A stretch of 64,000 nt of DNA from a virus, in IMG/VR virus record IMGVR_UViG_3300032116_000104, positions 1 through 64,000 of that record. One strand, written 5' to 3'. The position numbers and the translations under genes were made by a program. This document shows positions 29,105 to 57,623 of this stretch, in pieces. The notes beneath the pieces were generated by a model that was not told where the DNA came from, made no database searches, and was given only the letters and a program-made list of their open reading frames with translations. Every line of letters begins with the position of its first letter. The stretch's first letter is position 1.

Positions 29105-29121
29105 AGGGATTCACTTTCTTT

Positions 29122-30630: not shown

Positions 30631-30725
30631 TGGTCGGCTCCTTAATGTAAACCGTCGTAGAGTTTATCTGTACTGTGTAAAAGTATACCCTACACACACG
30701 TCGTGTAGGAAGGTATTACTGCGTA

Positions 30726-33700: not shown

Positions 33701-36700
33701 TGACTCTTTCCTCAAGAAGGTCACGAGCAAGGTAGGCAATATCAGTGACAGCCGTTCTATCTCCGCCACCTCCAGTGTTTCTGACACCATTTGCGGCTAT
33801 GTCAATTATTGACTGACGGATACGATTTAGTTCATCGCCAATGTTTTCTGGAGTTATGTCAGTGAGAACTATTGATTCAAAAAGTTCCATCGCTCTGTCT
33901 GCTGTGGCGGCATCCCATCCACCGCCCTGCTGCCCAGGCTGCATGAACCCCCTGATGTCACGCAACTCTTTTGACGCATCAAGTCTTGCCTGACGCGCCT
34001 GTTGTGCTGCCGCAGATGCGCGCCCTGCCTCTACGTCCCTCATATTGACGACTTCTACATCGCCAGTGCTGGAACGGACTCCTGTAGTTGGAAATTTGTT
34101 ATTTAACCCATTGGTCAGGGTATTGATTTCGTCTTCTGAGAATCCAAGTTCTCTGAGTTTGCCAACAATGTCTGACTCAATTTTCTGACGCGCCTCGCGA
34201 GACTCCGTTGGGTCAATCTTGCCCTTTTCATCACGCTTGACCATTCCAGAGCCGCGCTTACCGAGGTTCTCGGTCGTGGAGCGCATTCCACTACGGCGAC
34301 GCGCTGGGTTCAGGTTCTCAAGTTCTTCTTTAGAAACACCTTCAACAATGACCCTTCTTGCGGTCTTGGCGACTTCAAGTTGTCTGGCGAGCCTGGCTTC
34401 GTCTGGGCTTGGCTTGGCTCTCTCCATGTTCATATCGTCAACAGCAAGTTTGAGAACTCTATTCATGTCCTCAAAGTTGGTAGTCCCATTCTTCATGTCA
34501 CGAATGAGGCCATCAACCCAATCCTTGTCAAGGCCGCCCCTTGCCGAGTAGGCGGTTGGATAGTCTTCTAGTGACTCTTCAATATCTCTCAGAAACTCTG
34601 AAATTCTTCTGCCGCGACGGTCGGTAATTGACAGCGGTGAGTCCATTGAAGAACTCCTGAGACCACGAGCACGATTCATGCGTGGGTCTCCTCTGGTCTC
34701 TGCAATCTCCCATGCACGGAGGTCTTCCGCTCTGACGCCAAGGATTCCAGCAAGTTCACGAACTGGCGTTCCTTCAAAGCGCTTACGCAAGATGAATTCA
34801 GCAAGAGCCCTATCGGTGTCCTGGAATCGCGGCTCCTGACCTGGCTCCCCTCGTTGCGCAAGTTGTGCTGGTGTTCGTGCTGGGATGAGGTCTTTCGCCC
34901 TCTTCTTAATTTCCTGAATTTCTAGTTTCCGCACTTCTTCGCGCGACATACCATACTCTTCAGCAACATCATCAAGTACTTTGCCAGCAAGACGAGCATC
35001 AACAATCGCCCTGTCTCTGTCAATCTCAACCTGCATATCGTCCAGCAGCGCATCAACATCGTCTCTATCGGTTGAGGAACGAAGGCCTCTTCTTGAGCCA
35101 CCCGCATCTATGGAATCAGCAAGTTGCTGAATATCCTCAAACGGACCACCACGGTCTCTTCCGTATGCAGAGAGAGTGGCTATTAAAGCCAGTCTTGCGT
35201 TGTTCTTATCGTCCTCGCTAAGAGGAGACTTTGGCCTTCTTCTGCTCGGAAAGAATTTTGTAAAATCATCTCTGTCGCCGTCAGACAGTTTTATATATTG
35301 GTCTTTAAGTGTTGAAATAAGGTCGCTTAGTTCTTCTGCGCCAGGAAATTCGTCTGGAATGTCGCCTTGCATTACTGATGCAACTGTCCAGTCTGAACCA
35401 GGCTGCGGGGGAAAGTAATCGCCCTGTTCGCTAGGCATAAACCGCGAAAGAACCTCCCCGAGGTTTTCAAGGAGAATTTCATCTACATCATCCATTGATG
35501 TATCACCGTCATTGCCAAGACTTGCGTCAAGCGCCTCTATTGCTCGCTGAAGTGCTTTTGTCTGCTCATCTATGGTCATTTCCGCAAAGCGGTCTCCCAT
35601 TGCGTCAATAATTTCTCTTTGCTCTACGCTATTGGCCTTTGCCGTTCTTGAGCGAAGCCCATCAGGGCGACCCTTGGAGTCTCCAGCACTTTGCATGCTA
35701 CGCACCATGTTACGAAGCGCATCAGAGTTTTGCTTATCCGTACTACGAACTCGCTTGTTATTTACTGAGTCAAGAACTGTGCCGAGGGCAAGAAGAGACG
35801 CAATTTGGTCGTCTTCTGACACTGCTCTCTTCCCTCTGGTTTTATACATGTCACCAAAGCGACCCTTGCCGCCAAGTTTTTCATAGGCATCCTGGACTTC
35901 ACTCAGAAGGTCACTGACGCTCTCTTTGTCAACGCTCTCTGAACCATCAAGAATTTTGGATGCTGAGTAATCACCCGATGGCGCTTCCACGGATAGAAAA
36001 TCACTCATTAGTTCAGACAGGTATTCTCTGTAGAAATCAATTTCATCGTCACCAGTGGCATCAAACAATTCCAACTGGTCTTTAACGATATTTCTAAAAG
36101 CCTCTTTTCTTTCAGATGGAGACATTTTTGCCATTGATTCAATTGCTGTTCCAGAACGCAGTCCACCATCACGACGGTTCTTGGCCTCAAGTTCGGCTTG
36201 TCGCACATCCTCGCGACGCATGTTGAGCGACTGAGCAACATCCTGTAGTGACTCCCCAGCCTCGCGGCGCTTGAGAATCTCATCGTTTGTCTTGCGCTTT
36301 GCATCGCGCTGGCGGATTGCCCGAAGTTCAGCCTTTCGCACGTCTTCGCGGCGCATGCCAAGGGACTCGGCTACGTCCTGCAAGGACTCTCCAGCCTCAC
36401 GGCGCTTCAAGATGGAGGCGTCGTCGTTGCTGTCTTTTCCACCAGATGAACGGAGACCACGACCAGTGTTGATGCCCTGCCCCTGGGCGGCCTGAATTGC
36501 CGCCTGAGTATTTACGCGACCACGCGTTGACCTGTCGTTGACGCCTGGAATCGCAGGTCTTTGGAACGGTGTCCCTTCTTGAACGATGCCATCGCCGTCA
36601 CCGTCCCAAGCGTTGGGGTCAAATCTAGCGGTTAGGCCTCTTGCGAGGCGGCGTCCTTTTCCCCCTCCGCCACCACCAATCGCTCGCCCGATGCGATTGC

Positions 36701-38015
36701 CAAGCCCCTTCTTTAGAGTTTCAACTGCATCAATGAACTCGGGAGTGACACCAGAGGTAATCACGATTCCCTTTTCAGAGACATATGAATCTACGCGGTG
36801 GTAATCCATGATTGGGTCAAGGAGTTGCTTCGTGTGGAAAGCATTATTGATGTCAACTGGGATGACATACTCTGCTGACTTCACTTCAACTTCCTTCTCT
36901 GCCGAAGCAAGGACATCTTGGAGCATTTCCATGACATTCTTCAGTTTTGCAAGGTTGCGCTTGTTGAGCGAGCGGCCAATCTTCTCCTCAATGTCATCAA
37001 GGAAGAAGTCGTCAAAGTCCAAGTCGTCGGACTTTCCTGGCATTGGCATGAAGTCGTCTGGGTCATCCCCAAGATAGGCGTCCCCCTGCGGCTTCATTGA
37101 CACAGCAAAAGCCTGTGCTGGAGATGACGGTATGGCGGGAATCTCTGGCGTGTAGACAGTCTGACTCTGGACGCGCTCAGGCTTGCCAAACATGAATTGA
37201 CCATCCTGGAAGTGGAATGCCACTCTGTATGTTGACGACTCACCGTCGCTTGTCAGTCTGTCAAAAACAACAGTGTTCTCTGTTGCGGCCCTCACGATGA
37301 CGTTGGAGCCAGACCGCTTGACAAGTTCCCTTCTGAGGGCAACCATCAGCGGGTTCTCTGGGGCAGATGGACGAACTGGGCGAACGGCCTGCTGTGGCTT
37401 CGGCGCCATTGGCTTCATCATTCCAGACGGCATTCCAGGGCTGTGCGGCATGCCTGGCATGCCCATCATTCCGTGACCCTTCTCCTCATCCGCCAGAGTA
37501 GTATCTGACTTAACCGAAATCGTGCCAGTCAGTTGGTTGGCTCCATGAAGAACTGGGGAAACCTCGTAAAGTTCCACCTCTCTGAGGATGTTGGCCTGAA
37601 GATTAGGGTCAAAAGACGCCTGAATGGTCTTGTAGCCAATTGACCACTCCTGCTCCTCACCAAAGAAGGCAACATTGGCGAAAGCCTCACGGCCCTTCTC
37701 TGAATTGAGGTTGAACTGAACGCGAGCGTAAAGACCGCCGATTCCAGCAGCCTTCATCTTTCCTGGCAGTCTTGAGTCGGTTGGGGGAACTTCGTAAATC
37801 TCCAAAACCTTGCCGATGGGGTCATTCCAGTTGTGTCCCCAGACGACTCTTGGCTTGCGTCGCTTCAGACTTGAGTTAAAAGCACCTGGGAGAAGAACAT
37901 CACCGACGCTGTCCTTGTTTCCGACGCCAGCAACGAAGCACTCAACGATGCCCTGAGCCTGGTCAACATTGAATGTTCCAGAACTCGCTTTGAACTCAAT
38001 ATCAGAAAAAGACAT
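30726..38015 (-). CDS. Prohead (HK97-type, S78) protease fused to a ~2250-aa modular polyprotein
   Basis: N-terminal ~170 aa: G.VE.FV...GNKDS.GD...PGAF..SL......W.HNW..PIG...WSIGY...LYEVSPVL.GAN. Lies between portal and capsid genes. Confidence 0.92.
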   Translation of the reverse strand: MSFSDIEFKASSGTFNVDQAQGIVECFVAGVGNKDSVGDVLLPGAFNSSLKRRKPRVVWGHNWNDPIGKVLEIYEVPPTDSRLPGKMKAAGIGGLYARVQFNLNSEKGREAFANVAFFGEEQEWSIGYKTIQASFDPNLQANILREVELYEVSPVLHGANQLTGTISVKSDTTLADEEKGHGMMGMPGMPHSPGMPSGMMKPMAPKPQQAVRPVRPSAPENPLMVALRRELVKRSGSNVIVRAATENTVVFDRLTSDGESSTYRVAFHFQDGQFMFGKPERVQSQTVYTPEIPAIPSSPAQAFAVSMKPQGDAYLGDDPDDFMPMPGKSDDLDFDDFFLDDIEEKIGRSLNKRNLAKLKNVMEMLQDVLASAEKEVEVKSAEYVIPVDINNAFHTKQLLDPIMDYHRVDSYVSEKGIVITSGVTPEFIDAVETLKKGLGNRIGRAIGGGGGGKGRRLARGLTARFDPNAWDGDGDGIVQEGTPFQRPAIPGVNDRSTRGRVNTQAAIQAAQGQGINTGRGLRSSGGKDSNDDASILKRREAGESLQDVAESLGMRREDVRKAELRAIRQRDAKRKTNDEILKRREAGESLQDVAQSLNMRREDVRQAELEAKNRRDGGLRSGTAIESMAKMSPSERKEAFRNIVKDQLELFDATGDDEIDFYREYLSELMSDFLSVEAPSGDYSASKILDGSESVDKESVSDLLSEVQDAYEKLGGKGRFGDMYKTRGKRAVSEDDQIASLLALGTVLDSVNNKRVRSTDKQNSDALRNMVRSMQSAGDSKGRPDGLRSRTAKANSVEQREIIDAMGDRFAEMTIDEQTKALQRAIEALDASLGNDGDTSMDDVDEILLENLGEVLSRFMPSEQGDYFPPQPGSDWTVASVMQGDIPDEFPGAEELSDLISTLKDQYIKLSDGDRDDFTKFFPSRRRPKSPLSEDDKNNARLALIATLSAYGRDRGGPFEDIQQLADSIDAGGSRRGLRSSTDRDDVDALLDDMQVEIDRDRAIVDARLAGKVLDDVAEEYGMSREEVRKLEIQEIKKRAKDLIPARTPAQLAQRGEPGQEPRFQDTDRALAEFILRKRFEGTPVRELAGILGVRAEDLRAWEIAETRGDPRMNRARGLRSSSMDSPLSITDRRGRRISEFLRDIEESLEDYPTAYSARGGLDKDWVDGLIRDMKNGTTNFEDMNRVLKLAVDDMNMERAKPSPDEARLARQLEVAKTARRVIVEGVSKEELENLNPARRRSGMRSTTENLGKRGSGMVKRDEKGKIDPTESREARQKIESDIVGKLRELGFSEDEINTLTNGLNNKFPTTGVRSSTGDVEVVNMRDVEAGRASAAAQQARQARLDASKELRDIRGFMQPGQQGGGWDAATADRAMELFESIVLTDITPENIGDELNRIRQSIIDIAANGVRNTGGGGDRTAVTDIAYLARDLLEERVKAANIPDNEYLPDPDDPTGEWLRNWDSFSKDEIIELLDDWRDRMERNIEKLPIRPNPNDKQKARIRGLMSSTRDRKDRVSDVRKRESGRSMIRDLDESSRSRTEELFDAAANTPFTRENMRSRMDSLAEDAVRLMSDGLFGDEGEESAFVDVLNGFGEIVAEQIASALGIDDDFPVQNPSVREMMGPWGDGITERVFDAWDDKGIGDFATRARIFKDWTGKDRAVTTARAARKPRPTVKEGLERAKREKTENRILRRREAGESLQEVAESLGMRREDVRKAELRAMRRREAAQQSRTDSDEGMRSSTRRVANNLSMTLSDDEIAQLRDEIPMLKRFSANGAALDALDEKLKNARNGKVDLTPDEVEQIEDAIESAKEPRRDGRTVVTSDIQGVIDQAAESEGGKYVSLNWEDQQAGKRGNLGLRSNNNNGAPADIDEARQKKLVFFMNSARGGSLGVSMRIREEYNRRGDGTLLAKDWKALDTLYSNITGDANPKKSSGRGMRSSTSDDDTGGGGIRVTGLGDTGRSGSKGRPMGSRAKEDSKGKTFQSMKPDNWDGMTAEQQFNWMADHSPERSGMRKVDYERVMKEVLDREASDERRAERGARRAERGPVQPTQRQPQQGPKEVAVKPRPANDEDATTERRDDSRRINNFLDKTVNDASRLSDRGRIDELHAEAWDEIADIMDSEDLSRNQIKAAIQRVKNYLADAEEADDTDGPAEKIIQRAETLLRTLNGLDTYYKNDKFIKDGPEIEVAPRRGRAAADIADISDDAFDDTGGVVRRVEGRPLDIDDNVPTPDAEPAAGEVITRRMGEGLRSSVPVNANRVVSQEVRDYVAARSRNTRGLRSSTDSKQGRTEIKAEATFFKDILDSLPKEIREADKAQDKRTSDALKALQDLISRQEAAKLGSRRTNAGRILMTRDEVDEILDAMMVVIDRQGAIGGNERQQKFATMLDMLAKAAMATFIDRTVEELSSRTVNRRNQRGREVEIQDL

Positions 38016-38105: not shown

Positions 38106-40202
38106 TTACTGAAATGACCCTTGGACGCCAGCGTTCCACGCACGACGGGCTTCCTGTTCAGCGATTTCTGGCCTCTTCTTGCCCAAGAGGTTAGTGAACG
38201 TAGAGACGATTGAACTCCTGAAAAGCGTGCTTCGGATGTCCTCATCTGGGGCGTTGAGGGAAGTGAACATTGACGCACTCAGTTCACCAAATGTCTCGTC
38301 ATTCACTAGATTGATGCGCTCAATCTGGGAATTCACATGAGCGATGGCATCCTCTCGGGTGAATGGGGCAATCGGTAGACGCTTCTCCGCATAGGTTTCG
38401 CGGGCATCATTCATGATGGAAGTCAGGACTGGCCTGATGTCTTCCTCAATCTGTCTAGTCCATGTCTCCCTGTTGAAGATGGAGTCAATTTCCAAGGATG
38501 CCGTGGCGAGTTGCTTCTTCGCCTTGGCTCCGCTGGCCTTTTCCAGAACGACCCTCTGTTGCCTCTCAAAGATTCTCTCTAGGCTTCTGTCAAGAATCTG
38601 GGTCCATCTAGTGAGGGCAATATTGGACGCTTGGTCCAATTCTTGGTCCACCTTGGTTTGAATTGGCGAGTTAGCCAACGCCGACATTTGTTGTGGTGCT
38701 GGTGGCTCTTCTGTGGTGGCCATTTCGGGTGGAGCATCGTTTGGCCCCATTGGTGCTGGCGGCTCCGCTGCTTGGGCAGCAATTTGCATGGCGCCCTGCA
38801 TGGTCGTTGCATCTGGCGGTCCTTCTGGGGCGGCGTCAGTTGGCGGCATTCCTGGCATTCCTGGCATTCCTGGAGCACCTGGGGCACCTGGCATCCCTGG
38901 CATCCCTGGCATCCCTGGCATTCCTGGAGCACCTGGCATCTGTGCCTGCGGACCCTCTTCCATCTTCTTCTTGGTATTGGCGATGGGGGTGAGATTCGGG
39001 TTCATGAGAAGCGAGTCAGCAAGGTCGCTCTGAACATCCTTGCGTCCAGAATTAATTCTGTACTCGTTGGTACTGATGAGTCCATTCTGGAACTCATCCA
39101 TGAGGTAGCGCTGGCGCTCCTGCTCGTACAGAATCAGGACTGGAACATCCGATGTATCAAAGTCAATGTAATTGTTTTCATCAAGTTCGTCAAGGGCGCG
39201 ACCGAGAATTTCCAGATGCGGAAGCATTGTTTCGTTCCAGAAGACTCTGTGCTCCTCTGCGGCGTTGCTGAATGTCCTGCCCGCAGCGTTGCCAATGACC
39301 GACTCTGGCACTCCGAATGAAGCAAGAATCTCCTCTTTTGTGATTTGCCTCATCTGCATGTAGGCCGCATCACGGGGAGACGCAGATGTGTCAACATAAT
39401 CAACACCTTCGTCCGAAGAAATAACCGTTGTCTGACCCGTTCTGCTCAGGTTTCCACGGAAACGATTCTTGATTTCCTCTTTGTCGTCCTCGTCAATTTC
39501 CCCCCTGAGGACGATTAGTCCACCAGGACGACCGTCATTCAGCAAGTAGTTTCTGTTATAGACCTTTGCAAGATTCTCAATCTCTACGGCGACACCAGCG
39601 GACTCAAGAGGCGTCATTGAGAGGTACGGGTCAAGCGGGTGTGGCTTGCGAATCCAGACCACATCATCTGGCTTCATGATGATTGTTCTGCCGTCTGGCA
39701 TGATGACCTCATAGCCAGCGACAAAGTTCTTTGGGTCTGGAATTGGCGCGGTGGACTGCGGTGGCAAAAGGTTCAGGGCGATAACGGTTCCGTCTCTGGA
39801 ACGAATCTTCTCAATGAACGCACCTCTGGTGCTCATGAGAATCTGTGAGGAAAGCCTGTATCGGAAGATGAAGGAGTTCTCTCCTATGTTCGCTTTGGTA
39901 TTGAAGATTTTCAACAGGGGGCTGTCCTTAGCCGCCTTGCCGCCAAGAATCTGCCCGTCAGGTGAGTTATCCTTGCGAAGAATGACTGGAAGCCTTGCCT
40001 GGTTTCCAGCGATGGCATCAATGCATCGCGACACCCAAGTGACCTTCTGCATGCCCTCGCGATAAACGCGCTCAATGTCCCATGAGTCCTTGTAGCCACG
40101 GCCTGCATAGGCGGGGTTCATTGCGATGGGGGCGCCAGGACCTATTGCCGCCTTGGAAGAACCTGAGTTCAGTGACTTATTTTGATAACTATTCCAGGCC
40201 AT
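38106..40202 (-). CDS. Portal protein (HK97-like) with MPG low-complexity linker and MuF-like C-terminal extension
   Basis: V.RCID.IA...A.LP, G.A.I, P.DP..S..PL, N.GRPGG, I...FGVP...G; C-terminal RI..VNDET...IAEQE.RRAWNAG. Confidence 0.93.
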   Translation of the reverse strand: MAWNSYQNKSLNSGSSKAAIGPGAPIAMNPAYAGRGYKDSWDIERVYREGMQKVTWVSRCIDAIAGNQARLPVILRKDNSPDGQILGGKAAKDSPLLKIFNTKANIGENSFIFRYRLSSQILMSTRGAFIEKIRSRDGTVIALNLLPPQSTAPIPDPKNFVAGYEVIMPDGRTIIMKPDDVVWIRKPHPLDPYLSMTPLESAGVAVEIENLAKVYNRNYLLNDGRPGGLIVLRGEIDEDDKEEIKNRFRGNLSRTGQTTVISSDEGVDYVDTSASPRDAAYMQMRQITKEEILASFGVPESVIGNAAGRTFSNAAEEHRVFWNETMLPHLEILGRALDELDENNYIDFDTSDVPVLILYEQERQRYLMDEFQNGLISTNEYRINSGRKDVQSDLADSLLMNPNLTPIANTKKKMEEGPQAQMPGAPGMPGMPGMPGMPGAPGAPGMPGMPGMPPTDAAPEGPPDATTMQGAMQIAAQAAEPPAPMGPNDAPPEMATTEEPPAPQQMSALANSPIQTKVDQELDQASNIALTRWTQILDRSLERIFERQQRVVLEKASGAKAKKQLATASLEIDSIFNRETWTRQIEEDIRPVLTSIMNDARETYAEKRLPIAPFTREDAIAHVNSQIERINLVNDETFGELSASMFTSLNAPDEDIRSTLFRSSIVSTFTNLLGKKRPEIAEQEARRAWNAGVQGSFQ
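38845..38939 (-). repeat. 9-bp tandem repeat encoding (MPG/APG)n inside the portal gene
   Basis: CCTGGCAT(T/C) units on the + strand. Confidence 0.85.
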
Positions 40203-40445: not shown

Positions 40446-40493
40446 ATGAACAACATTACCTTATACGACGAACGGCTGTCGGAGGGCATATTT

Positions 40494-41801
40494 ATGTCAA
40501 CAGATTGGAACAAAGTTTTAGAGTATCTTCAGCCGAAGATGCCTGGGTTTTGTCCAGAACAGCCATCCATAACCCAGAAGGTATTTCTAAGAACCTATGC
40601 CATTGAGGCGCTGTTCGGGGGAGCGGCTGGTGGAGGCAAGTCATCCGCTCTTCTGATGTCAGCATTGCAGTATGTGGATATTCCTGGCTATTCAGCCATT
40701 CTTTTCCGCCGCACCTTCGCTGACTTGTCGCTCCCAGGAGCACTCATGGACCGCTTCAAGTCATGGATTGACAATTACGACGACGTTCATTGGAACGCCA
40801 ACTCCTATGTTGCGACTTTCCCATCTGGGGCCAGAATCTCCTTCGGATACCTGAACAACACGAACGACTACCTCCGATACAAGGGTTCTGAGTTCCAGTT
40901 CATCGGCATGGATGAGGTCACTGAAATTCGTGAATCTGACTATAGGTACCTGTTCTCCCGACTGCGTCGCCCTGCTACTGGACCACTTTCCAAGGTTCCC
41001 CTCCGAATGAGGGCCGCATCCAACCCAGCACCCAACTGGGTGAGACAAAGATTTATTGTTGAGGGCATTGATAATGGCAGAATTTTCGTGCCCTCCAAAC
41101 TGACCGACAACCCTGGAATTGATGCCACCTCGTACCGTCAAGCCCTTTCTGCCCTTGACCCTATTGAGAGAAGAAGGCTGGAGGAGGGCGACTGGTTTGC
41201 CACCACCCTAGGGACGCTCTTTGACAGAACATCGGCAATCATCATTGACCACTCAGAAATACCTCAGGTCCAGTCATCGGCTCGTGTTGTCCGTTTCTGG
41301 GACTTGGCGGCTACAGAGCCAAGTTATTCAAACCCCAATCCAGACTGGACTGTCGGTACATTGATGATGTTTGACCAAGGAATCGCCTACGTTTTGGATG
41401 TCAAGAAAGCCAGAGTGCGCGGCGAGAAGGTTGAGCAGTTGATTGCCCAAACCGCCTATGAGGACGGACATGCTGTCCCCATCAGAATGGAGCAAGAACC
41501 TGGTTCTTCTGGAAAAGCCCTAGTTGACCAATACGCAAGATATGTGCTTCCTGGATACGATTTTCAGGGCATTCGCTCTACTGGGGACAAGGTCACAAGG
41601 GCTAGACCATTTTCTGCCGCGTTTGCTAATGGCAATGTCAGGGTCGCAAGGGGGGCATGGCTGACTGATTGGCTTGATGAATTTTCGTCATTTCCTGAGG
41701 CCTGTGACCACGACGACCAAGTGGACTCCGCCGTAGGAGCATTCACATATTTGGCTGGACTTGGGTTGCCACAGAGACGAGCAATCAGTATCATCGTCTA
41801 G
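40494..41801 (+). CDS. terL: Terminase large subunit
   Basis: Walker A GGAAGGGKS, Walker B IGMDE, ASNP; nuclease motifs WDLA...PDWT and HDDQVD; GGAGG RBS. Confidence 0.95.
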   Translation: MSTDWNKVLEYLQPKMPGFCPEQPSITQKVFLRTYAIEALFGGAAGGGKSSALLMSALQYVDIPGYSAILFRRTFADLSLPGALMDRFKSWIDNYDDVHWNANSYVATFPSGARISFGYLNNTNDYLRYKGSEFQFIGMDEVTEIRESDYRYLFSRLRRPATGPLSKVPLRMRAASNPAPNWVRQRFIVEGIDNGRIFVPSKLTDNPGIDATSYRQALSALDPIERRRLEEGDWFATTLGTLFDRTSAIIIDHSEIPQVQSSARVVRFWDLAATEPSYSNPNPDWTVGTLMMFDQGIAYVLDVKKARVRGEKVEQLIAQTAYEDGHAVPIRMEQEPGSSGKALVDQYARYVLPGYDFQGIRSTGDKVTRARPFSAAFANGNVRVARGAWLTDWLDEFSSFPEACDHDDQVDSAVGAFTYLAGLGLPQRRAISIIV

Positions 41802-41826: not shown

Positions 41827-42342
41827 GTGGTCCCAGACGACCTCAGAGTTGCCATTGGCGCACTCAGACAAACAATCCTTGACCTTGATGCCATGGTCTT
41901 GGAATATTCATATGCCGAGCCGACGATGGAGCATGCCTCTGAGGCACTTCTTCAACTCAATCTCGCAAAAAGGGACGTTGCCTCCGTCTACGACGGTCTT
42001 GCCGCCTTCGTGTCTCACTTGATGGAAAACTTGTCCACCAAAGACCTTGCGCTTTCCAATGGTGCCCAAATTGAGCGCAAAGTTGCTTTTGACAGAAAAG
42101 GCTGGCGTCACGCTGACCTTGCCAGGGATGTGGCGCACAGGCTTATTGAGTCTTCCGTGGATATGGACACTGGTGAGGTGTTGTTGACAAATGAAGAACT
42201 TGTCGCTAAACTCCTTGACTACGTTCAGCCCTCCTATTGGCGGGTTGGCGAACTAAATAAAATCGGCATCAACGCCGATAATTACTGCGAAACTGGCGAA
42301 GCAAAAGCCAGCCTTGTTGTTAGAAAAGGAGAAAACCAATGA
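41827..42342 (+). CDS. Hypothetical protein
   Basis: 171-aa ORF with AGGAG RBS and GTG start. Confidence 0.8.
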   Translation: MVPDDLRVAIGALRQTILDLDAMVLEYSYAEPTMEHASEALLQLNLAKRDVASVYDGLAAFVSHLMENLSTKDLALSNGAQIERKVAFDRKGWRHADLARDVAHRLIESSVDMDTGEVLLTNEELVAKLLDYVQPSYWRVGELNKIGINADNYCETGEAKASLVVRKGENQ

Positions 42343-43007
42343 GTGATATTTACAAGCAGTTTGCCGAACCCTTCCCCAAGGAAGTTGAGCGTCAACTCAA
42401 GAAAGGTGGGGCGTACCTCACCTACATTCCCGTCAGCGAGGTCATCACCAGACTCAACAAGGTTGTTGGCGTTGGTCGCTGGAACTTCCAAATCAACAAG
42501 TGCGAGCGTGACGCTCTTGACCCTGATTTCATCGTCGCCCATGTGACCCTTGAGGCAATCATTGAGAATCCCGCTGGTCAGAACGTCCTCGTCAAGCGAG
42601 ACGGTATCGGTGGGCAGAAAATCAAGCGCACTAAGCAGGACGACATTGTTGACCTCGGTGACGAGATGAAGGGCGCCGTGTCCGACGCACTCAAGAAAGC
42701 AGCACAGACTCTTGGCATTGGCCTCTACCTCGCTCGCACCGAAGAGGCGATGGAATACGATGTGGTTGAGGAGGCTCCTCAGGTTGCTCCGAAGATTTCC
42801 CAGTTGTGGGAACAGTTTGTTTCCCTCAGCAAGTCTCTCAGCGCAGACCAGCGCAATGAGTTGAACTCTTTCTGGACCAACTGGTCTGGTGGTGCCCCCA
42901 AGCCCACGAAGACCACGGCAACGGAAGAACAACTTGATGCTCTCATCACACAGTGCGTCGCTCTTTCGCTAAACGCCACTGTTGTGGATGAAGATGCCGA
43001 TTCATAA
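42339..43007 (+). CDS. Rad52/Sak-like ssDNA-annealing protein
   Basis: LTYI....V..RLNKVVG...W.F......K.AVSDALKKAA..LGIGLYL. Confidence 0.88.
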   Translation: MSDIYKQFAEPFPKEVERQLKKGGAYLTYIPVSEVITRLNKVVGVGRWNFQINKCERDALDPDFIVAHVTLEAIIENPAGQNVLVKRDGIGGQKIKRTKQDDIVDLGDEMKGAVSDALKKAAQTLGIGLYLARTEEAMEYDVVEEAPQVAPKISQLWEQFVSLSKSLSADQRNELNSFWTNWSGGAPKPTKTTATEEQLDALITQCVALSLNATVVDEDADS

Positions 43008-43758
43008 TCCGCCTCCTCATCTCTCTGCATCATCCATAGGCACTTTCAACCAGTGTCCGCTGAAATTCAAGTTCAGCAAAATTGATGGGATAACTGACGA
43101 CCCAACAGAGGCAACCCTGATGGGAAACTTCGTCCATGACATCATGGAGGAGTTCTATCGTCACGACCCAGAACTGAGGGATATTGCCCTTGCTCGCACT
43201 CTTGCTTCCAAGATTTGGGAAGAAAAGTGGCGAGATGAGGTAACCCCATGGGTGAAGGGCGACAAGCAACTGCACATGTTCCGATGGAACTCGTGGTGGT
43301 GCGTGGAGAACCTGTGGAAACTTGAAGACCCCATGAGTATCTCACCGACTGGACTTGAGCGAGAAGTGAATGGTCTGGTTGGCGGAGTAAAAATCAAGGG
43401 GTTCATAGACAGGTTTGTCGTCAATAATGGGAAGATAACCATCTCCGACTACAAGACTGGCAAGGTGCCCAAGCCTCAGTATGCAGGCGAGAAGTTCTTC
43501 CAGTTGAACCTGTATGCCCATCTCTTGCGCTCGGAAGGCGTTGGTGAACCCGAAGAAGTTGAACTCCTGTTCCTGAAAGAGGGCAAGCGGCTTAGGGACA
43601 AGGTCACCGAAAAAAGCCTCACCAGTGCCGAGCAACTTGTTGTGTCAACAAAAGAACAGATTGACGTTTGCTGTGAAACTGGCGAGTTTGAGCCAATAAA
43701 GTCAATTCTGTGTAACTGGTGCTCTTATCAATCAATCTGTCCAGCGTGGAGAAAGTGA
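42994..43758 (+). CDS. RecB-family PD-(D/E)xK exonuclease with Fe-S-type Cys
   Basis: LS.SS...F.QCP, G..VH, GFIDR...DYKTG, QL.LY, C..C.Y...CP. Confidence 0.88.
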   Translation: MPIHNPPPHLSASSIGTFNQCPLKFKFSKIDGITDDPTEATLMGNFVHDIMEEFYRHDPELRDIALARTLASKIWEEKWRDEVTPWVKGDKQLHMFRWNSWWCVENLWKLEDPMSISPTGLEREVNGLVGGVKIKGFIDRFVVNNGKITISDYKTGKVPKPQYAGEKFFQLNLYAHLLRSEGVGEPEEVELLFLKEGKRLRDKVTEKSLTSAEQLVVSTKEQIDVCCETGEFEPIKSILCNWCSYQSICPAWRK

Positions 43759-50497: not shown

Positions 50498-50893
50498 ATG
50501 CAGAATAAAGTCGTCAACGTCAAGGTCAAGAAGGGTGATTCCCTATCGGGGTTCCCTGCTGGTTCTGTCGTAGTTAAAAACGTCGCTGGAAGAACTATTG
50601 AGGTTGGTGAGCCAAGACTTGCTCTCTTCCCAGGGGAAATTGCTGTTTTCGCTGGCTCCGCCAGGGGCGTTGCCGAGGGGCTTGCCAACAAGACGCTCAA
50701 GTCTGTTCAGGTCGTTGATGCCTATGAAGAGCCTAAGTCGTATATCTCTAGCAAGAAAAAGAAGAATGATGTTCCAGCGCCAGATGAGGAAACTGTTTCT
50801 GAAACAGTTGCATCGGAGGAGCCAGAGTCATCTGTACAATTGGGGCTTGTAGACACCGAGTCTTCCCCCTCTGACCAGCAGGAAGGTAACTAA
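50498..50893 (+). CDS. Hypothetical protein upstream of sheath
   Basis: GGAG RBS; acidic disordered C-terminus; TAATG coupling to sheath. Confidence 0.7.
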   Translation: MQNKVVNVKVKKGDSLSGFPAGSVVVKNVAGRTIEVGEPRLALFPGEIAVFAGSARGVAEGLANKTLKSVQVVDAYEEPKSYISSKKKKNDVPAPDEETVSETVASEEPESSVQLGLVDTESSPSDQQEGN

Positions 50894-52356
50894 TGCCAGG
50901 CATTGTAATTGAAACAGCAGTAAGAACTGGTCCCTCAACCGCGACTGTTCGTGCGTCTTCACAGTTCTTTGTTGTTGGTCTCGCTGAGCGCGGCACCACC
51001 ACTGCTCCAGTCAAGGTTGAGAGCCTTGAGCAGTTTGAGACCTACTTCGGCGGTTATCAGTCCTACTCATACCTCCACCCGACAGTCCAGACCTTCTTTG
51101 AGGAGGGCGGTACTCGCGCCTATGTCGCAAGAGTGGTTGGTTCGGCTGCTGACTCTGGTTCGTTGACTCTTGATGACGGCGACGACGATAACACCATCAC
51201 TATCACTGCTGTTGGCGAGGGCAACTGGTCAACCAGAATCAAGGTTCAGGTTGTTGATGCCTCTGGTGACAGAAACGTCAAGATTCTTCTTGACGATGTG
51301 GAGATTTTCGCAACTGGCGCCCAGTCAACCGTGACTGGCATTATCAACGCCATCAACACCAGCGTTGAGGCTTCTCCGTATGTGGTTGCGAGCAACGATA
51401 ACTCAACCAACAACAACCCACTCCCAGCGGTTCTCGCTGCTACGGCGCTTTCTGCTGGTGACGATGATAGGGCTGCAGTTGTTGCTGCTGACTATGTCAA
51501 TGCTCTTGAACTGTTCAATGACTCATACGGCGATGGCGCCGTGGCGGTTGTGGAGAATACCTCCGACACGGTAAAAGAGGGTCTGGTTGAGCACGCCAAC
51601 ACTCACAGCAGAATCGCCCTTCTCCACTCAGCCTCTGGCACTTCTGTGTCAACGGTAATTGCTGATGCTGAGGAAATCACCGACCTTGAGCATGCCGAGC
51701 ACGCGGCCTACTACTTCCCGTGGGTGTATGTGCCGACTAGCGTGAATGGCGTGAATCGCCTGATTCCTCCGACTGGCTATGTGGCTGCCAAGCGTGCGCA
51801 GGCTCACAACCAGACTGGACCTCACGCTCCTGCTGCTGGCCTGATGTCACGCTCGCGCTTCGTCAATGGAGTTGAGACAGATATTGACCGCACCAACGGC
51901 GACCTTCTTGACAACGGCAAGGTCAACGCTATCCGCGTTCTGAGCAACACCATCCGTATCTACGGTGCACGCTCATGCTCGTCTGATGTCGCCAACTTCC
52001 GCTTCTACACTGCTCAGGATGTTCTGAACTCAGTGGTGACGCAAGCCTTCACCTCGCTTGAGGACCTGGTGTTCTCTGTCATTGACGGCAGAAACATCGT
52101 CCTGGCTTCGGTGGAGTCGCGCCTTGTGAGTCTCCTTGAGGGTCTCAAGAACCTCGGCGCCCTGTACCCATCGTTTGATGCCTTTGGTGTTCAGGTTGAC
52201 CCTGGCTACACGGTCAAGTGCAACCCATCCATCAACCCACTCACCCAACTAGCCGATGGCACCATCAAGGCCGAGGTTGGAATCAGGGTGTCCAGCATTG
52301 GCGACAAGATTAACGTCACAATCGTCAAGTCCAACCTGACTACATCTATTGTCTAG
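50893..52356 (+). CDS. Tail sheath protein
   Basis: MPG..I, G..ERG....V.S..QFE..FG, FF.EGG..AYV.RV, Y.PW......PP.G..A, VN.IR.....IYGAR. Confidence 0.93.
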   Translation: MPGIVIETAVRTGPSTATVRASSQFFVVGLAERGTTTAPVKVESLEQFETYFGGYQSYSYLHPTVQTFFEEGGTRAYVARVVGSAADSGSLTLDDGDDDNTITITAVGEGNWSTRIKVQVVDASGDRNVKILLDDVEIFATGAQSTVTGIINAINTSVEASPYVVASNDNSTNNNPLPAVLAATALSAGDDDRAAVVAADYVNALELFNDSYGDGAVAVVENTSDTVKEGLVEHANTHSRIALLHSASGTSVSTVIADAEEITDLEHAEHAAYYFPWVYVPTSVNGVNRLIPPTGYVAAKRAQAHNQTGPHAPAAGLMSRSRFVNGVETDIDRTNGDLLDNGKVNAIRVLSNTIRIYGARSCSSDVANFRFYTAQDVLNSVVTQAFTSLEDLVFSVIDGRNIVLASVESRLVSLLEGLKNLGALYPSFDAFGVQVDPGYTVKCNPSINPLTQLADGTIKAEVGIRVSSIGDKINVTIVKSNLTTSIV

Positions 52357-52369
52357 GAGTAGATAAACA

Positions 52370-52843
52370 ATGGCAAAAGTATCCCAGAGACAGGTCCTTG
52401 CGACAATTGACCCAGTGACCACTGGGGCCCCAAAGTGGAATGAGTTCCGCTTTGCCCAGGTGTCAGGTGGAGAAATCACCGCGTCTGTGGAGAAAATCTA
52501 CGAGGGTGGTGCTCAGTTCCCGACGGTGCTGTGCGCCCCATACGAGATTGGCGACATCACGCTAACCGCCCACTTTGACGATGACGTAACTCCGTCTGAT
52601 GACTACAATGGTATTGCCTACAAACTGCGTCTACTCCGCGACAGAGTTGGCAAGGCCTACTACAACATCACGGTTGCTACATACGACTGTGACCTCAAGG
52701 TGAACGGCAACGACCGCATCTACAGCAACTGCCTCCTGGTTGGCCTGACCGAGCCAGACGGCGACTCTTCATCGGGTGCCCCAGCGACGTTTGCTCTGAC
52801 CTTCTCGGTCCAGAACGTCACTGGTCCTAGCACCAACGCCTGA
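52370..52843 (+). CDS. Tail tube protein
   Basis: Follows sheath; F..VSGG......Y.GG.......ITL...DGDS.S....LT. Confidence 0.85.
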   Translation: MAKVSQRQVLATIDPVTTGAPKWNEFRFAQVSGGEITASVEKIYEGGAQFPTVLCAPYEIGDITLTAHFDDDVTPSDDYNGIAYKLRLLRDRVGKAYYNITVATYDCDLKVNGNDRIYSNCLLVGLTEPDGDSSSGAPATFALTFSVQNVTGPSTNA

Positions 52844-52905: not shown

Positions 52906-53421
52906 ATGAGCGAAAACTCCCTTTACCTAGAAGAAACCCCCGAGCCAAAGAAGGGCGCCAAGTCGGCCCCTGCGCAGCCAACTGTCCTTGACCGCCTGAA
53001 GGAGACAATCTCCAAGAAGGTTGAGCGCCAGACTGTTCACCTTGAGGTTCCAGAGCGTCCGAATGTGACCCTCATCATCTCCCCTAACATCAGTCAGCAT
53101 GATATGCGTCGTTGGCGCAAGGCTGCTGGCGAGGACAGCAAGAACGGCATGGATGCCACCCGCTTTGCTTGTTCGGTAATCGGACACACCACCGTCGGAA
53201 TCGCCTTTGACGGCGAAGAGGTCATGGACGAAGAGGGCTATCCGCTGAACTTTGCCTCTCCAGTAATCATGGAGATGACGGATACTAGCCGTCCAATCCC
53301 AGAGGCAGTTCGTGCATTCTTCGGAATTGACCCACATATTGAGGCTGCTGCCCTCGCGATTCTTGATGCGGCTGGCTACGGGGAGACCGTAGATACCGTG
53401 GACCCTACGAAGGGGTCATAG
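52906..53421 (+). CDS. Tail assembly chaperone (G-like)
   Basis: Between tube and tape measure; ends DPTKGS; leaderless TAGGTT-N6-ATG. Confidence 0.8.
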   Translation: MSENSLYLEETPEPKKGAKSAPAQPTVLDRLKETISKKVERQTVHLEVPERPNVTLIISPNISQHDMRRWRKAAGEDSKNGMDATRFACSVIGHTTVGIAFDGEEVMDEEGYPLNFASPVIMEMTDTSRPIPEAVRAFFGIDPHIEAAALAILDAAGYGETVDTVDPTKGS

Positions 53422-53627: not shown

Positions 53628-56600
53628 ATGGCTGACGAAAAAGTCACAATCAAGATTGAAGTCAACTCTGACGTTCGTGGCGCAAAAAGAGTCAATCGGG
53701 AACTCAAAGAAATTGCCCGCACTGCCGACCGCATCAATGCCCATTCTGGCATGCGGAGCAGTACAAAAAACCTCACTGGAATGCTCAATGGGCAGCAAGT
53801 GGTCTGGAAGAAGCACTTTGATGAACTTGACAAGTTGACCAAGATGTTCGGCAAGGGCATGCAAATGGGCATGAAACTTGCCACCAAAGCCGTTATTGCC
53901 GAACTAGCGATTCTCAGCGTCTCGCTCGTTGGTATCCATGGACTGTTTGCCGCTGGTCAGGGGATAATGAAAGCCTACCGATGGGCCCTTGATGCCACTG
54001 GCGCTGCGGCTACTGGACTTGTTTTTGCCTTGTCAACAGTTGCTGCTGCATTGAGAGAACAACAGGCGGCAATGTACGCCTACAAGACCAATACTCTTCC
54101 GCAGTTCGGCTCTGGGCTGAACCAGACGAGAGTTCTGATGAGGGCTCTTAGTTCCGACAGTGAGATGGCTTTCATCGGTGTTGAGAATCTCAACAAGGCA
54201 TTTGCTGCAGTATCCAAGAACTCAACATGGACCGCAAATAGTCAGCAACTCCTTAGAGGACTCATGGACTTTGCGGCTGCTGGTCAGCCACTTGAGCAAG
54301 GTGTTGAGAAGGCTGGAGAACTCATCGGCTTGCTCCAGGACACCAAGTCATCCTGGGGTTCTATCAAGAAAGCAGCCGAAGCATCAAGCCCTGCAATGAA
54401 AAAGGCTCTTGAAGAAGCCAAGAAGCAGGGAATCAATACAAGAGAAGAACTCATCAATGCCATCAATAGCGGCCAGTTGTCTTCGCTAGGTGGAGTGAGT
54501 GGTCAGTTTGACGCCGTGAGCGGAACCCTCATTAACCAACTCAAGGGGTACTTCAACATTGTTCGCGGAAGATTTGCTGACCTTGGACAGCAGTTTCTTG
54601 CGCCAGTCAAAGAGGCCATGAGCGAGTTGATGAACATCTTCAATAGAATGTTCATCAGAACAATCCCAGCCCTCTCCAAGAGGGGAATCAACTCGTTCAC
54701 TGATGGAATTGTCAATGTTGCAGAAAAGATAGAAAGACTCTATTCAAAAATTATCTACCAATACACTGAAAGAACTGAGGGAGTTTTTGAGGGCATTTCC
54801 AAATGGTGGGCAAAGTTCAGACAGGGATGGGAAGACACAAAAGAAGCCCTAAGACCGTTTATTGAGGGTGCTCGCGTCATTGAGGACGCCCTAAAGGCGG
54901 CGTTCCAGCCCATCAAGGAGACTGTCTCTGGAAAGTTTGGCGACTTCAATGAATGGCTTCAGGAGAACAGGGGGGAAGTCGTTGAGTTTGGCGACAAGAT
55001 GGGCAAACTTGTTTCTGCGATATTGAAACTTTTTGGGGAAATTGGCAAACTTTATAGAACCCTTCTGCCGTTCATTAACAGACTCGTTGACGGACTTACA
55101 CAGGTAGTTAACCTGACATCCAGCATGTTTGGCATGTTTAGTGGCATGGGGCAATTTGGCGGTCTATTTGCCCTACTTGGAATGCGTCAACTTGGAGGAA
55201 AGTTGGCTGGCACCAGAGGTGGATTTATAGGTGTGGGTGCTGGCGCTGCTGGTTCTGCACCTGCTGGAAGTTATGGACCATATGGTTCAAACTTCGCCAC
55301 AATGCAGCAACAGGCAGCACAAAGACAAGGCATGGGGGTAAGAAGCGGTGGCCTGAGGAGCAGCACTGGCGCTGCCGCTGCCGCTGGCACTGCTGGTCGT
55401 GGTGGTTTTAGAGGATTCATGTCAAATGTCGGTACAAGATTCGGCAACTATGCATCACAGCAGTTCGGCCCCATGGACATGGCTGAGTACAGGAGAATAG
55501 AGAAAGGGGCGCAACAGCCGACTGCATTTCAAAGAAGCAGCACCATGCAGGCCCTAAGAAGGGCAAGATACAGAAACCAGGGGCTTCAAAAATTCCAGCA
55601 AAGCGGTGGAGCAAAACTGGGAGTCGGCATGGGACTTGGAATGCTGAGTGCCGTCGCTCCAGCCGAGATGCAGGGTGCCCTTGCGCTCGGCGGCATGGCT
55701 GCCCAAATCAATCCGATGCTTGGTTTGGCAGTCGGCGGCCTTGGTGCCGCCATGAATGCCCAGGGTGGCTTGAGTGGAGCGCTGGCTGGCGCTGGCGGTG
55801 GAGCCGCACTCGGTGCCATGGTTGGAGGACCAGTTGGGGCAATGGTCGGAGCCGCTCTTGGTGGCATTGCTGGAGCAATTAGGGGCTGGACCAATAAGAG
55901 CAAAACACAAGCAAAAATGGCCAGGAAAGCAGTTACTGATACCCTAACAAGCATTACTACTGGTGCTGCAGAGTTTGCTATTGCCGAACTGATGGCTGGC
56001 CCAGGGAGGGGTGCTAACCCAATCAGGGAAGCACTGCAAAAACAAAAGTCGCAAGCACAGTCATTCGGAGATGTTGTTCGTTCTGGAATGGGAAACAGGG
56101 CGCAAAACAAAGAACTATTGCAGGACCTTTTTGACAATCAACTAACGCTTGGCATCAAAATCACTGAGAGCCAATTGAAAGACATGATGGAAAAGCCAGA
56201 TACCGCAGTATCTGAGTACATCAAGCAGACCAATGCCCAGATGGGTGCAAGCGAAATTGTCATGGACTCTTTCAATACCAAAATGCAGTTCTTGCAGAAT
56301 TACACTGGTCAAACAGAAGACCAAATTCTTGCGCTAGCAAAGACCATGGGAGTAAATCTCCTTGACGGAACCCAGACAGCGATGGAAGCCCTTGAGGAAA
56401 TGGGCAAATTGCAAGTCAAGACAGCGGAACAAATGAAAAACGTCTTCACAGAGGCATACGCATCTGCTGAAGGCGTGTTTGACAAAATCATCAAGCAAAA
56501 AGAAGCACCTAAAATTCTTGATGAAATGGCGAAAGCATTGTCTGGCAAACTTCAGCGTGGTGGTGGAGAGAAACAAATTCTAGATTTCTTCAAAGAGTCA

Positions 56601-57623
56601 ATGCCAGCATTGATAGCCCAATTTGGTAGTGGCGACCTTGCCATGGCTCAACTAGTTACGAGTTTTTTTGGTCCAAATGCAACCGCATTCCAGAAGGGCG
56701 GACCATTTGAGGGAATGCAAGGGCAATTTGCTTCTGTTCAAGATGAACTTATGCTTGTTATAAAAGAATTTGCTGGCGGAGCAGTTCCAGGCATCATTGA
56801 CCAGATACAAAATACCCTTCCAGAAGGAAGGCAGTTGGGTGATGTTGGCGGCCTAACGACTGCACTAACTAGTCTTCTGTCAACCAATCCAGAGTTGTTT
56901 GCACAAATTACAACTGGTTCCGTTAACCAATTTGGTGGCGACCCACTAAAGTTCTTTCAAAATTTTGGCGTTGGACTCACAACAGTGGCCACAGAAGATA
57001 CTACCCGTGACAATTTAGATGAACTTCCAACTGAACTCAAGACACAATATGAAGCGCTGGTCAAAGAGTTTGACAAAGTATTTGCAAAATATACAGAAAA
57101 ACCAGACTGGATGACTGATAAGTTTATTAAATTTGTTGATGAAAACAACGATACGGCAACCCCTCGCGGCGCTGGCATTGGGGACACAACATCCTCGCGC
57201 CTAGCAGTAACAATGAACCGTCACTCAGTAATGGACGACATGTTGACTGGCAAGAGAAATGTTACTTCTGCATGGAGAAACTGGGGACTCGGCTCCATGA
57301 ACTCTGACCATGTGACGGGAAGGGCCTATGACCTAACTGGGCAGAACCTTGGGGGATATCAGCAACTTGTTCAGAGCACTGGTGGATTTGCGGAGTTCCA
57401 TGGGACTAACGCCAGTAGGCATCTCCACGTCGTTCCAGGCCCAGTTGGTGACACAGCCGTTCCAGCCATGACAACTCCAGGACCAATGATGGCCACTGGC
57501 GGGTCAACCTACAATAACTACAATTTTACTGTGTCCAGCAATTCATCCGACCCAGAAGTGGTTGCTAATGTCGTGATGCGAAAGATTGAAGAAACACAAA
57601 GGGACAAGAGGGAACGCAAGTGA
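53628..57623 (+). CDS. Tape measure protein with C-terminal M15-like peptidoglycan peptidase domain
   Basis: Long helical, Gly/Ala-rich protein; C-terminal VTS.WR......SDH.TGRAYDL...HLHV. Confidence 0.92.
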   Translation: MADEKVTIKIEVNSDVRGAKRVNRELKEIARTADRINAHSGMRSSTKNLTGMLNGQQVVWKKHFDELDKLTKMFGKGMQMGMKLATKAVIAELAILSVSLVGIHGLFAAGQGIMKAYRWALDATGAAATGLVFALSTVAAALREQQAAMYAYKTNTLPQFGSGLNQTRVLMRALSSDSEMAFIGVENLNKAFAAVSKNSTWTANSQQLLRGLMDFAAAGQPLEQGVEKAGELIGLLQDTKSSWGSIKKAAEASSPAMKKALEEAKKQGINTREELINAINSGQLSSLGGVSGQFDAVSGTLINQLKGYFNIVRGRFADLGQQFLAPVKEAMSELMNIFNRMFIRTIPALSKRGINSFTDGIVNVAEKIERLYSKIIYQYTERTEGVFEGISKWWAKFRQGWEDTKEALRPFIEGARVIEDALKAAFQPIKETVSGKFGDFNEWLQENRGEVVEFGDKMGKLVSAILKLFGEIGKLYRTLLPFINRLVDGLTQVVNLTSSMFGMFSGMGQFGGLFALLGMRQLGGKLAGTRGGFIGVGAGAAGSAPAGSYGPYGSNFATMQQQAAQRQGMGVRSGGLRSSTGAAAAAGTAGRGGFRGFMSNVGTRFGNYASQQFGPMDMAEYRRIEKGAQQPTAFQRSSTMQALRRARYRNQGLQKFQQSGGAKLGVGMGLGMLSAVAPAEMQGALALGGMAAQINPMLGLAVGGLGAAMNAQGGLSGALAGAGGGAALGAMVGGPVGAMVGAALGGIAGAIRGWTNKSKTQAKMARKAVTDTLTSITTGAAEFAIAELMAGPGRGANPIREALQKQKSQAQSFGDVVRSGMGNRAQNKELLQDLFDNQLTLGIKITESQLKDMMEKPDTAVSEYIKQTNAQMGASEIVMDSFNTKMQFLQNYTGQTEDQILALAKTMGVNLLDGTQTAMEALEEMGKLQVKTAEQMKNVFTEAYASAEGVFDKIIKQKEAPKILDEMAKALSGKLQRGGGEKQILDFFKESMPALIAQFGSGDLAMAQLVTSFFGPNATAFQKGGPFEGMQGQFASVQDELMLVIKEFAGGAVPGIIDQIQNTLPEGRQLGDVGGLTTALTSLLSTNPELFAQITTGSVNQFGGDPLKFFQNFGVGLTTVATEDTTRDNLDELPTELKTQYEALVKEFDKVFAKYTEKPDWMTDKFIKFVDENNDTATPRGAGIGDTTSSRLAVTMNRHSVMDDMLTGKRNVTSAWRNWGLGSMNSDHVTGRAYDLTGQNLGGYQQLVQSTGGFAEFHGTNASRHLHVVPGPVGDTAVPAMTTPGPMMATGGSTYNNYNFTVSSNSSDPEVVANVVMRKIEETQRDKRERK

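Follow-up and report, generated by a model that had tools for sequence, protein, structure and literature searches.

The DNA considered here, hereinafter the window, covers the opening 64 kb of a phage record of 84,372 bp from IMG/VR (IMGVR_UViG_3300032116_000104; CheckV completeness 56%), and our principal subject is a short peptide motif in its tape measure protein (TMP). We found that this TMP carries the motif that also punctuates the giant proteins of the phage's head module, namely G-[LMF/V]-x-S (in the window G[LM]RS[SR]T), and that across 15 related phages the residue x in the TMP varies together with that in the head proteins. We propose that the motif is a proteolytic processing signal operating across the virion of this phage family, with the head and TMP sites cut by a single enzyme, most probably the S78 prohead protease encoded in the head module; taken as a whole, we regard this proposal as evenly balanced between right and wrong. 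Its parts differ in strength. From the sequence patterns we strongly infer that the motif is a cleavage site served by one enzyme at all its copies, and the S78 protease is, with moderate confidence, the best candidate for that enzyme.

The TMP (P0001) is encoded by an open reading frame (ORF) of 1331 amino acids (aa) on the + strand (53628–57623), directly 3′ of genes that a PHROG search identifies as those for the sheath (50893–52356, E 4.7e-39), the tube (52370–52843, E 7.5e-21) and a tail assembly chaperone (52906–53421, E 2.4e-15). The protein itself gives a weak match to PHROG 4070 (E 5.5e-7, residues 244–494) and scores only E 0.93 against Pfam Tape_meas_lam_C. Thus, it is the gene position together with the PHROG 4070 match that makes the label sound. 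The length is suitable for a TMP, and the start, MADEKV, is kept in the consensus of the homolog alignment. A tblastn search with the TMP against 50,697 phage records returned no match; hence, it has no cultured relative in that collection. Its layout comprises a conserved N-terminal body (residues ~60–528), a low-complexity linker (528–660), a Gly-zipper region, a variable region and a conserved C-terminal domain. Translation confirms the motif copies reported by the initial annotation, all in frame on the + strand: a single N-terminal site, GMRSST (53748–53765, residues 41–46), and a tandem pair in the middle of the linker, GVRSG followed by GLRSST (GVRSGGLRSST, 55335–55367, residues 570–580).

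Two further TMP regions deserve description. The membrane-like Gly-zipper segment (55605–55907, +; residues ~660–760) shows invariant Gly columns and matches Pfam Gly-zipper_YMGG with E-values of 1.7e-4 to 5e-4, under the Pfam gathering score. The C-terminal domain (57150–57452, +) displays the invariant patterns S-x-H-x-x-G-x-A-x-D and H-x-H, as well as an invariant R-H-L-H-V in the homolog alignment. The first two are typical of M15/LAS cell-wall peptidases, a family to which the domain may tentatively be related. It has no Pfam match and no PDB sequence match, and its AlphaFold2 (AF2) model, with a predicted local distance difference test (pLDDT) score of 50.8, is too poor for a fold search. 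It may represent a candidate cell-wall peptidase family that has so far escaped recognition.

The motif is both strongly enriched and sharply restricted in the record. Crude ORF calling over its full length (longest non-overlapping frames of ≥50 aa) yields 91 ORFs with 26,939 aa in all, and these contain 23 copies of G[LMV]RS as compared to 1.8 ± 1.3 in per-protein shuffles. All 23 lie in five ORFs, namely four head-module proteins and the TMP, with none in the other 86. Specifically, the 91-ORF scan finds no G[LMV]RS in the capsid, portal, sheath, tube, baseplate-J or enzyme genes, in agreement with the initial annotation, which had also called for such a proteome-wide scan and had correctly placed the TMP copies some 15 kb from the head genes and on the opposite strand (the head module occupies 11.4–40.2 kb of the − strand). 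The 23 sites draw on all four Gly codons and on both codon families of Arg and of Ser, which places the constraint on the peptide rather than on a DNA repeat. The sequence flanking them contains few hydrophobic residues (0.165, as compared to 0.25–0.30 in whole proteins). With varied codons and hydrophilic linkers at module borders, the sites therefore resemble cleavage sites. The sole near-match elsewhere is a GIRS at residue 375 of the large terminase (40446–41801, +), in the context GYDFQGIRSTGDK. As this segment, G[YF]DF.GIRSTGDK, is unchanged in 6/6 records whatever version of the motif the record uses, we consider it an unrelated look-alike, to be left out of motif counts.

One may ask whether the TMP copies are merely what a Gly/Ser/Arg-rich low-complexity linker would throw up by chance. 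The mid-linker site does lie within a low-complexity stretch, and Poisson probabilities computed for single genomes are weak in many of the relatives (0.07–0.26). However, the window TMP has three copies against an expectation of 0.077, a number reached in none of 2000 shuffles, and the residue-41 site lies outside low-complexity sequence. Chance would also have to account for the retention of both sites in the close homologs and for the co-variation of x with the head version, both described below. We hold this explanation to be close to negligible in probability.

We next consider conservation in TMP homologs, of which a search scoring 7998 candidates recovered 727 with E ≤ 0.001; the statements here concern the best 120 of these 727. 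One of them, P0002, a fragment whose sequence is that of the window itself, was left out of the alignment. Among the matches listed, the seven closest full-length homologs (P0003–P0009, 48–66% identity) all keep SG[LM]RSST at residue 41 and all keep G[LM]RSRT (as DG[LM]RSRT) at ~570, the latter despite different flanks (NFDDDGLRSRTG against QGMGVRSGGLRSSTGA). The motif is neither lost from related TMPs nor as frequent in non-virion proteins as in virion ones, and the claim of the initial annotation that the TMP carries the same motif as the head proteins is upheld by these seven homologs, by the co-variation of x across 15 records and by the absence of the motif from the 86 other ORFs of the record.

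G[LMV]RS is missing from most of the more distant homologs. In its place, their aligned N-terminal peptides read SGLASST, SGFASST, KGMSSRS, RGLASTS or DGLASRG. Counting the broader pattern G[LMFVI][RA]S over the N-terminal ~62 residues and over the linker, taken as the stretch aligned to 528–646, we found it in 82 of the best 120 of 727 homologs: in both places in 33, in the linker only in 31 and at the N-terminus only in 18, with neither place occupied in the remaining 38. Inspection of the linkers in P0001 and 26 homologs (four of them with the pattern) revealed that most of the others show further versions of the motif. Such versions occur at both TMP places, for instance, GKFSSGR with PGFSSGR, GMSSRS with GLFSRG, and GMSSQR. 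The constant skeleton is thus G-[LMF]-x-S. The residue-41 site is restricted to clade II and the mid-linker site is the widespread one, which is probably ancestral.

The variability of x allows the TMP and the head proteins to be compared phage by phage. An alignment-based scan of IMG/VR yielded 555 stretches encoding TMP relatives, of which the best 80 were kept. From these we used 14 long records in which the protease is likewise encoded, and which with the window give 15 TMP–head pairs; six records (G011 and G016–G020) were dropped, being without a protease match. The first five were picked by length, and the next nine by length and TMP-site diversity, blind to head motifs. The dominant head versions across these records are GLRS, GMRS, GLAS, GFAS, GMAS and GFSS; in the window record and in G006, GLRS outnumbers every other 4-mer of the non-TMP proteome.

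Among R-type phages, the window (G000) has GLRS 15 times and GMRS 4 times in its head proteins, and GMRSST (41), GVRSG (570) and GLRSST (575) in its TMP; G005 combines 37 head GMRS with GMRSQV at TMP residue 613, G006 8 head GLRS with GMRSQT at 574, and G015 18 head GMRS with GMRSSN at 596. Among A-type phages, G002 has 26 GLAS in its head proteins and GLAS at TMP residues 21, 580 and 589, and G004 has 20 GFAS with GLASRG (50) and GFASSG (632) in the TMP. The head version is likewise GFAS in G010, G012 and G013, with TMP sites reading GFAS/GLAS in the linker, GFAS in the linker and GFAS at the N-terminal site (residue 40), respectively. The S-type G014, with 6 GFSS and 3 GLSS in its head proteins, has GLSSLK at TMP residue 594. 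An exception is G003, where the TMP has GFLSAR and GMSSGQ, plus a GLRSHE outside the linker.

Across the 15 TMPs, sites of the phage's own head version number 18 against 2.58 expected by composition, with at least one in 12 of the TMPs; matches to versions other than the phage's own number five (GLAS in G001 and G005, GFRS in G007, and GMRS in G008 and G009). In the alignment-defined TMP N-terminus and linker, 16 of 30 G[LMF]xS sites bear the top x residue of the head proteins. Shuffling the TMP–genome pairings gives 4.45 ± 1.09 against the observed 8.11 (P = 0.0005, uncorrected for phylogeny). In a tree of the TMPs from which the site regions had been removed, the window phage stands as the sole R-type within a clade of A- and S/A-types, and G014 is the sole S-type within a clade of R-types. 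By these placements, head and TMP sites have switched jointly at least twice. As x in the TMP tracks the head version, a single reader most likely serves both the TMP and the head cargo.

The head-module proteins that carry the remaining copies are four in number and are encoded between the portal and capsid genes. The richest is a 2429-aa protein (30726–38015, −) with 12 sites, which is headed by the S78 protease domain. The sites divide the chain into pieces of 30–522 aa that align to pieces of the relatives bounded by the relatives' own sites. Its C-terminal 146-aa module is preceded by a site 0–11 aa upstream of the match in 11/11 records holding the module, and in 7/14 records the end of segment 1–522 lies no more than 7 aa from a site. 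Judged by these alignments, the layout is that of a predicted polyprotein with its cleavage sites, and we propose that in the head module the signal would separate the modules of giant cargo proteins. The modules of this chain also include a Sigma70_r4 domain (residues 1693–1726, E 6e-10) and helix-turn-helix-type matches (residues 568–607). A search of the gene for an A7 run found none, and the protease thus seems to be produced solely in fused form here. The other three are a 1945-aa protein with 5 sites (23267–29104, −), a 1195-aa protein with 2 sites at residues 335 and 348 (15005–18592, −) and a 596-aa protein with a single site at residue 329 (12848–14638, −). The last of these, possibly a packaged effector, matches DUF3721 and contains a Zeta-toxin/AAA_33 kinase-like domain (E 3e-13). 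The wider suggestion of the initial annotation, that the motif marks ejected proteins in general, is plausible; the position of the head-protein genes and the analogy with other phages are the grounds for supposing that these head proteins may be ejected into the host.

Relatives encode further giant proteins rich in the motif: G002 (28352–37690), G004 (93698–103156) and G005 (10873–25750) have ones of 3112, 3152, 2281 and 2543 aa, with 6–18 sites each. Some of these lie outside the portal-to-capsid block, and several bear multiple HExxH motifs. Tandem double sites recur in other cargo proteins and TMPs; the GVRSGGLRSS of the window TMP can be set beside the GVRSGGLASS at residues 371–380 of the 3112-aa cargo protein of the A-type G002 (28352–37690, −).

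The arrangement of sites in these chains bears on the prospect that the motif, though a signal common to all these proteins, goes uncut, serving for instance as a Ser/Thr modification site or a handle for translocation through portal and tail. The constancy of Ser at position 4, followed by Ser, Thr or Arg, is compatible with modification, and sequence by itself offers no proof of a cut. On the other hand, the sites lie at the module borders of chains headed by a protease, which measure 1652–4898 aa in six whole records and ~2000–2300 aa in the other complete ones; modules are shuffled between relatives, which is the classic layout of polyprotein cleavage sites; and linkers contain tandem double sites. 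We accordingly rate an uncut signal as very unlikely.

The S78 (HK97-type) prohead serine protease domain occupies residues 1–~170 of the 2429-aa polyprotein (37506–38015, −) and is recognized by Pfam PF04586 (E 1.5e-11, 45.2 bits against a cutoff of 21) and PHROG 80 (E 4.5e-29). It is N-terminal in all 15 records and 72–83% identical in the 14 relatives, and its fusion to a downstream chain recurs in 14 out of 15 additional records. The protease-headed ORF is of the above-mentioned 1652 to 4898 aa in the first five relatives and ~2000–2300 aa in most of the later ones; those of G012 and G013 are broken by contig ends, and in G006 it measures only 566 aa, with a second ORF then holding the downstream modules. 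H61, S125 and H157 are invariant in the 15 sequences and are candidate catalytic residues. A Foldseek search with the low-confidence model of the domain placed herpesvirus proteases first (E 9.6e-3) and T4 gp21 at rank 18, none with E ≤ 0.001, and a PDB sequence search with the protease domain produced one chance-level match only (E 0.097).

Several observations favor this enzyme as the reader. Its conservation is comparable to that of the motif core, and it lies in cis on the richest substrate. Within the S78 core (residues 20–170), the sole columns that part R-type from A-type phages are 79, 81, 85, 88 and 89, where R-types have N/S/T as compared to G in A-types, P/S as compared to A/R/Y, and K as compared to L/R, along with differences at positions 85 and 89. 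In addition, the nearly invariant G91 is replaced by Ser in a single phage, the S-type G014.

The initial annotation had suggested that the enzyme reading the motif may not be the prohead protease, and might be a zincin or a host protease acting after injection. There are points for and against this suggestion. A zincin signature, HEFGH, is indeed present at residues 578–582 of the 1945-aa cargo protein (27359–27373, −), in a module that recurs in 11 other records, and zincin-like metallopeptidase domains have been predicted to process polyvalent proteins, possibly after injection, by Iyer et al. 2017 (PMC5512222). Were this zincin, or another co-packaged peptidase, to act after ejection by cutting G|[LMF] with a hydrophobic P1′ residue, the problem of head and tail topology would be gone, because all the substrates meet in the host. 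Furthermore, the capsid linker is blind to the lineage's motif version (see below), which implies that x may not be read by the S78 enzyme that matures the capsid. Against the suggestion, S78 heads the 12-site protein and the S78 loop columns 79–89 track the motif version. Moreover, the zincin module is only 21–32% identical across records in which the motif core is constant and S78 is 72–83% identical; it matches no profile family, so that its peptidase nature hinges on HExxH; and it was not found in 3 records, all of them fragments. On balance, a zincin or similar co-packaged reader appears rather unlikely.

A host protease, reading the motif in cargo and TMP either in the producing cell or after ejection, is the other possibility that the initial annotation had raised. 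Under it, the versions would reflect the hosts, and the version does differ among lineages that possibly infect different hosts; moreover, the enzyme that processes TMPs in model phages goes unnamed in the accessible text of PMC11972413. A GTDB genome scan matched only metagenome-bin contigs and gave no clue to the host. Against a host enzyme, the motif is densest in the very protein that is headed by a protease, its version correlates with the loop of the phage's own S78 protease, and G008 and G009 (end branches of 0.029 and 0.022 in the TMP tree) differ from G002 in their mix of versions despite the three forming one well-supported clade. We therefore judge it to be distinctly unlikely.

The preferred proposal, a virion-wide signal read by S78, has to be weighed against a number of unfavorable points. 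One concerns the expected substrate of an S78 enzyme. We sought a version-matched motif in the capsid linker (residues ~105–125, joining the scaffold-like, coiled-coil-like N-domain to the HK97 fold) and found none. In the window this linker reads AAAAAGYSLKGLGSQQ, with KGLGSQ. In clade II it follows YS[LV]K[GS]LG[SA]S in R- and A-types alike (KGLGS in the R-type window, KSLGSS or KGLGAS in A-type relatives), and in clade I EG[LF]REA; it is thus motif-like and version-blind. The TMP, for its part, is the product of a tail-module gene, unlike the usual substrate of a prohead protease, which is a head component that meets the enzyme inside the prohead. In contractile phages the tail is built separately from the prohead, to which the activity of an HK97-type protease is normally limited; the access of S78 to the TMP, and above all to its mid site, is therefore a real difficulty for the proposal.

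The co-variation is also imperfect: at 14 of the 30 TMP sites x is not the top residue of the head proteins, and 3 of the 15 TMPs lack any site of their own phage's dominant head version. The TMP of G001 has GMSSQR only, a near version; that of G007 (head GMAS) has the near versions GFRSAN, GMSSRG and GMMSTG; and in G009 the head proteins are split between S (7) and A (6) when all the TMP sites are of the A version (GLASST, and GFASRT twice). The second batch of records was, moreover, picked after its TMP sites had been seen. With respect to the protease, the loop columns 79–89 are confounded by descent, and the AF2 model of the domain (pLDDT 61) is of too low a confidence for judging the distance of the loop to the active site. 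In a protease-domain tree built without the loop, 1 of 12 inner branches is well supported, and therefore a convergent and an inherited origin of the R-type loop of the window phage are indistinguishable by this tree. We also considered the cultured actinophages Cantare and ChisanaKitsune, which have the closest capsids (47–49% identity), as a model; a comparable motif is missing both from their TMPs and from the proteins of their portal-to-capsid block, so that they show no such system. Finally, cleavage at the motif is itself something that we infer from sequence.

If the preferred proposal nevertheless holds, its consequences for the TMP can be sketched. A cut at the residue-41 site would remove a peptide of ~43 residues from the N-terminus, and one at 570–580 would split the protein into the conserved N-terminal body and a half with the Gly-zipper and the C-terminal domain. 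Herpesvirus proteases cleave at A|S, and by analogy with that bond and with K103/S104 of HK97, the scissile bond here would be x|S. As to timing, the protease-polyprotein might, while still free in the cytoplasm, cut the TMP before tail assembly; alternatively, the cut might follow the joint ejection of TMP, cargo and protease into the host. We further posit, tentatively and leaning slightly against it ourselves, that the head-maturation protease of these phages is not confined to the prohead but is a virion-wide enzyme that also cuts the TMP and whose site preference (R, A or S) has switched repeatedly. Each such switch in specificity would have carried along roughly twenty to eighty sites in head proteins plus those in the TMP.

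The head module is bounded by two genes without the canonical motif. The portal protein (38106–40202, −) matches Pfam Phage_portal (E 1e-49) and the major capsid protein (11356–12684, −) Pfam Phage_capsid (E 5.5e-45). Directly 3′ of the capsid gene, and slightly overlapping it, is an odd neighbor, a gene of the Asp/Asn beta-hydroxylase family (10746–11378, −; E 1.3e-15). Elsewhere, the window codes for a LexA-type DNA-binding protein (4499–4729, −), a class II (B12) ribonucleotide reductase (7002–8927, +) and a Rad52-like annealase beside a PD-(D/E)XK nuclease (42339–43758, +).

The sequence signal ties the processing of TMPs to the code by which cargo polyproteins appear to be dissected, and does so through lineage-specific changes in that code. 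It provides a candidate enzyme and exact candidate sites, and suggests either a cross-talk between head and tail maturation or processing after ejection. If the proposal is true, it would reveal which class of enzyme processes the TMP in one family of phages and offer natural sets of orthogonal protease/site pairs. It would also mean that the cleavage sites of a whole proteome can drift along with their reader. In practical terms, the motif could serve as a predictor of host-delivered proteins in abundant uncultured lake phages.

Among known systems, the closest likeness in kind is to T4 gp21 and phiKZ/SPN3US gp175/gp245, where likewise a short consensus is common to several virion proteins and a prohead protease gene is present in the genome. 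The cleavage motifs in T4 and phiKZ are of the form x-x-E. In contrast, the enzyme here belongs to the S78 family and is fused to the N-terminus of its largest candidate substrate, and the motif is G-[LMF]-x-S. In SPN3US/phiKZ-type phages, many head-packaged, ejected proteins possess a short consensus that is cut by a prohead protease of the assemblin fold at head maturation (PMC10052503). The available parts of that source give the SPN3US TMP, gp239, only as a tail protein and not as a protease substrate, whereas the TMP of the window phage carries the signal.

Cleavage of TMPs is confirmed in siphophages (lambda gpH to gpH*, T5 pb2) and inferred in the myophage phiTE, and the parts so produced may differ in copy number within the tail, six-fold as against three-fold in phiTE (PMC11972413). 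The split predicted at the mid-linker site, between a ruler part and a C-terminal part, is comparable. The accounts of TMP processing in the consulted portion of that article name neither the protease nor a motif shared with head proteins and describe its purpose as debated. The sites described here differ from those of lambda, T5 and phiTE in being predicted from sequence and in being tied to a head-cargo signal. Our literature search, with subscription journals largely outside its reach, found no paper connecting the cleavage of TMPs with either a prohead protease or a motif of the head cargo.

The cargo proteins are reminiscent of the polyvalent proteins of phages and conjugative elements (Iyer, Burroughs, Anand, de Souza, Aravind 2017, PMC5512222). 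These are giant multi-domain products of genes that lie among those for the virion; they accompany the DNA on delivery, and embedded peptidases are predicted to divide them into units. By its domain composition, the 2429-aa protein, a giant multi-domain chain among virion genes with an embedded peptidase, appears to fit this class. In polyvalent proteins assemblin-like peptidases are placed at the C-termini, as opposed to the N-terminal S78 (assemblin-clan) domain in all 15 records here. "Tape measure" does not occur in the main text of PMC5512222, nor was a repeated junction motif met in the parts available.

Lastly, HK97 gp4 and the herpesvirus assemblin belong to the same protease clan. The HK97 cut at K103/S104 falls in an unstructured stretch (PMC10275583), and cleavage before Ser fits the R|S and A|S bonds predicted here. 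The substrates of those enzymes are capsid or scaffold proteins, cut exclusively within the procapsid; the capsid linker of the window phage is without the canonical motif. The processing of virion proteins by way of a short motif is thus of a known kind; what is new here is the link between the TMP and head motifs and their co-variation.

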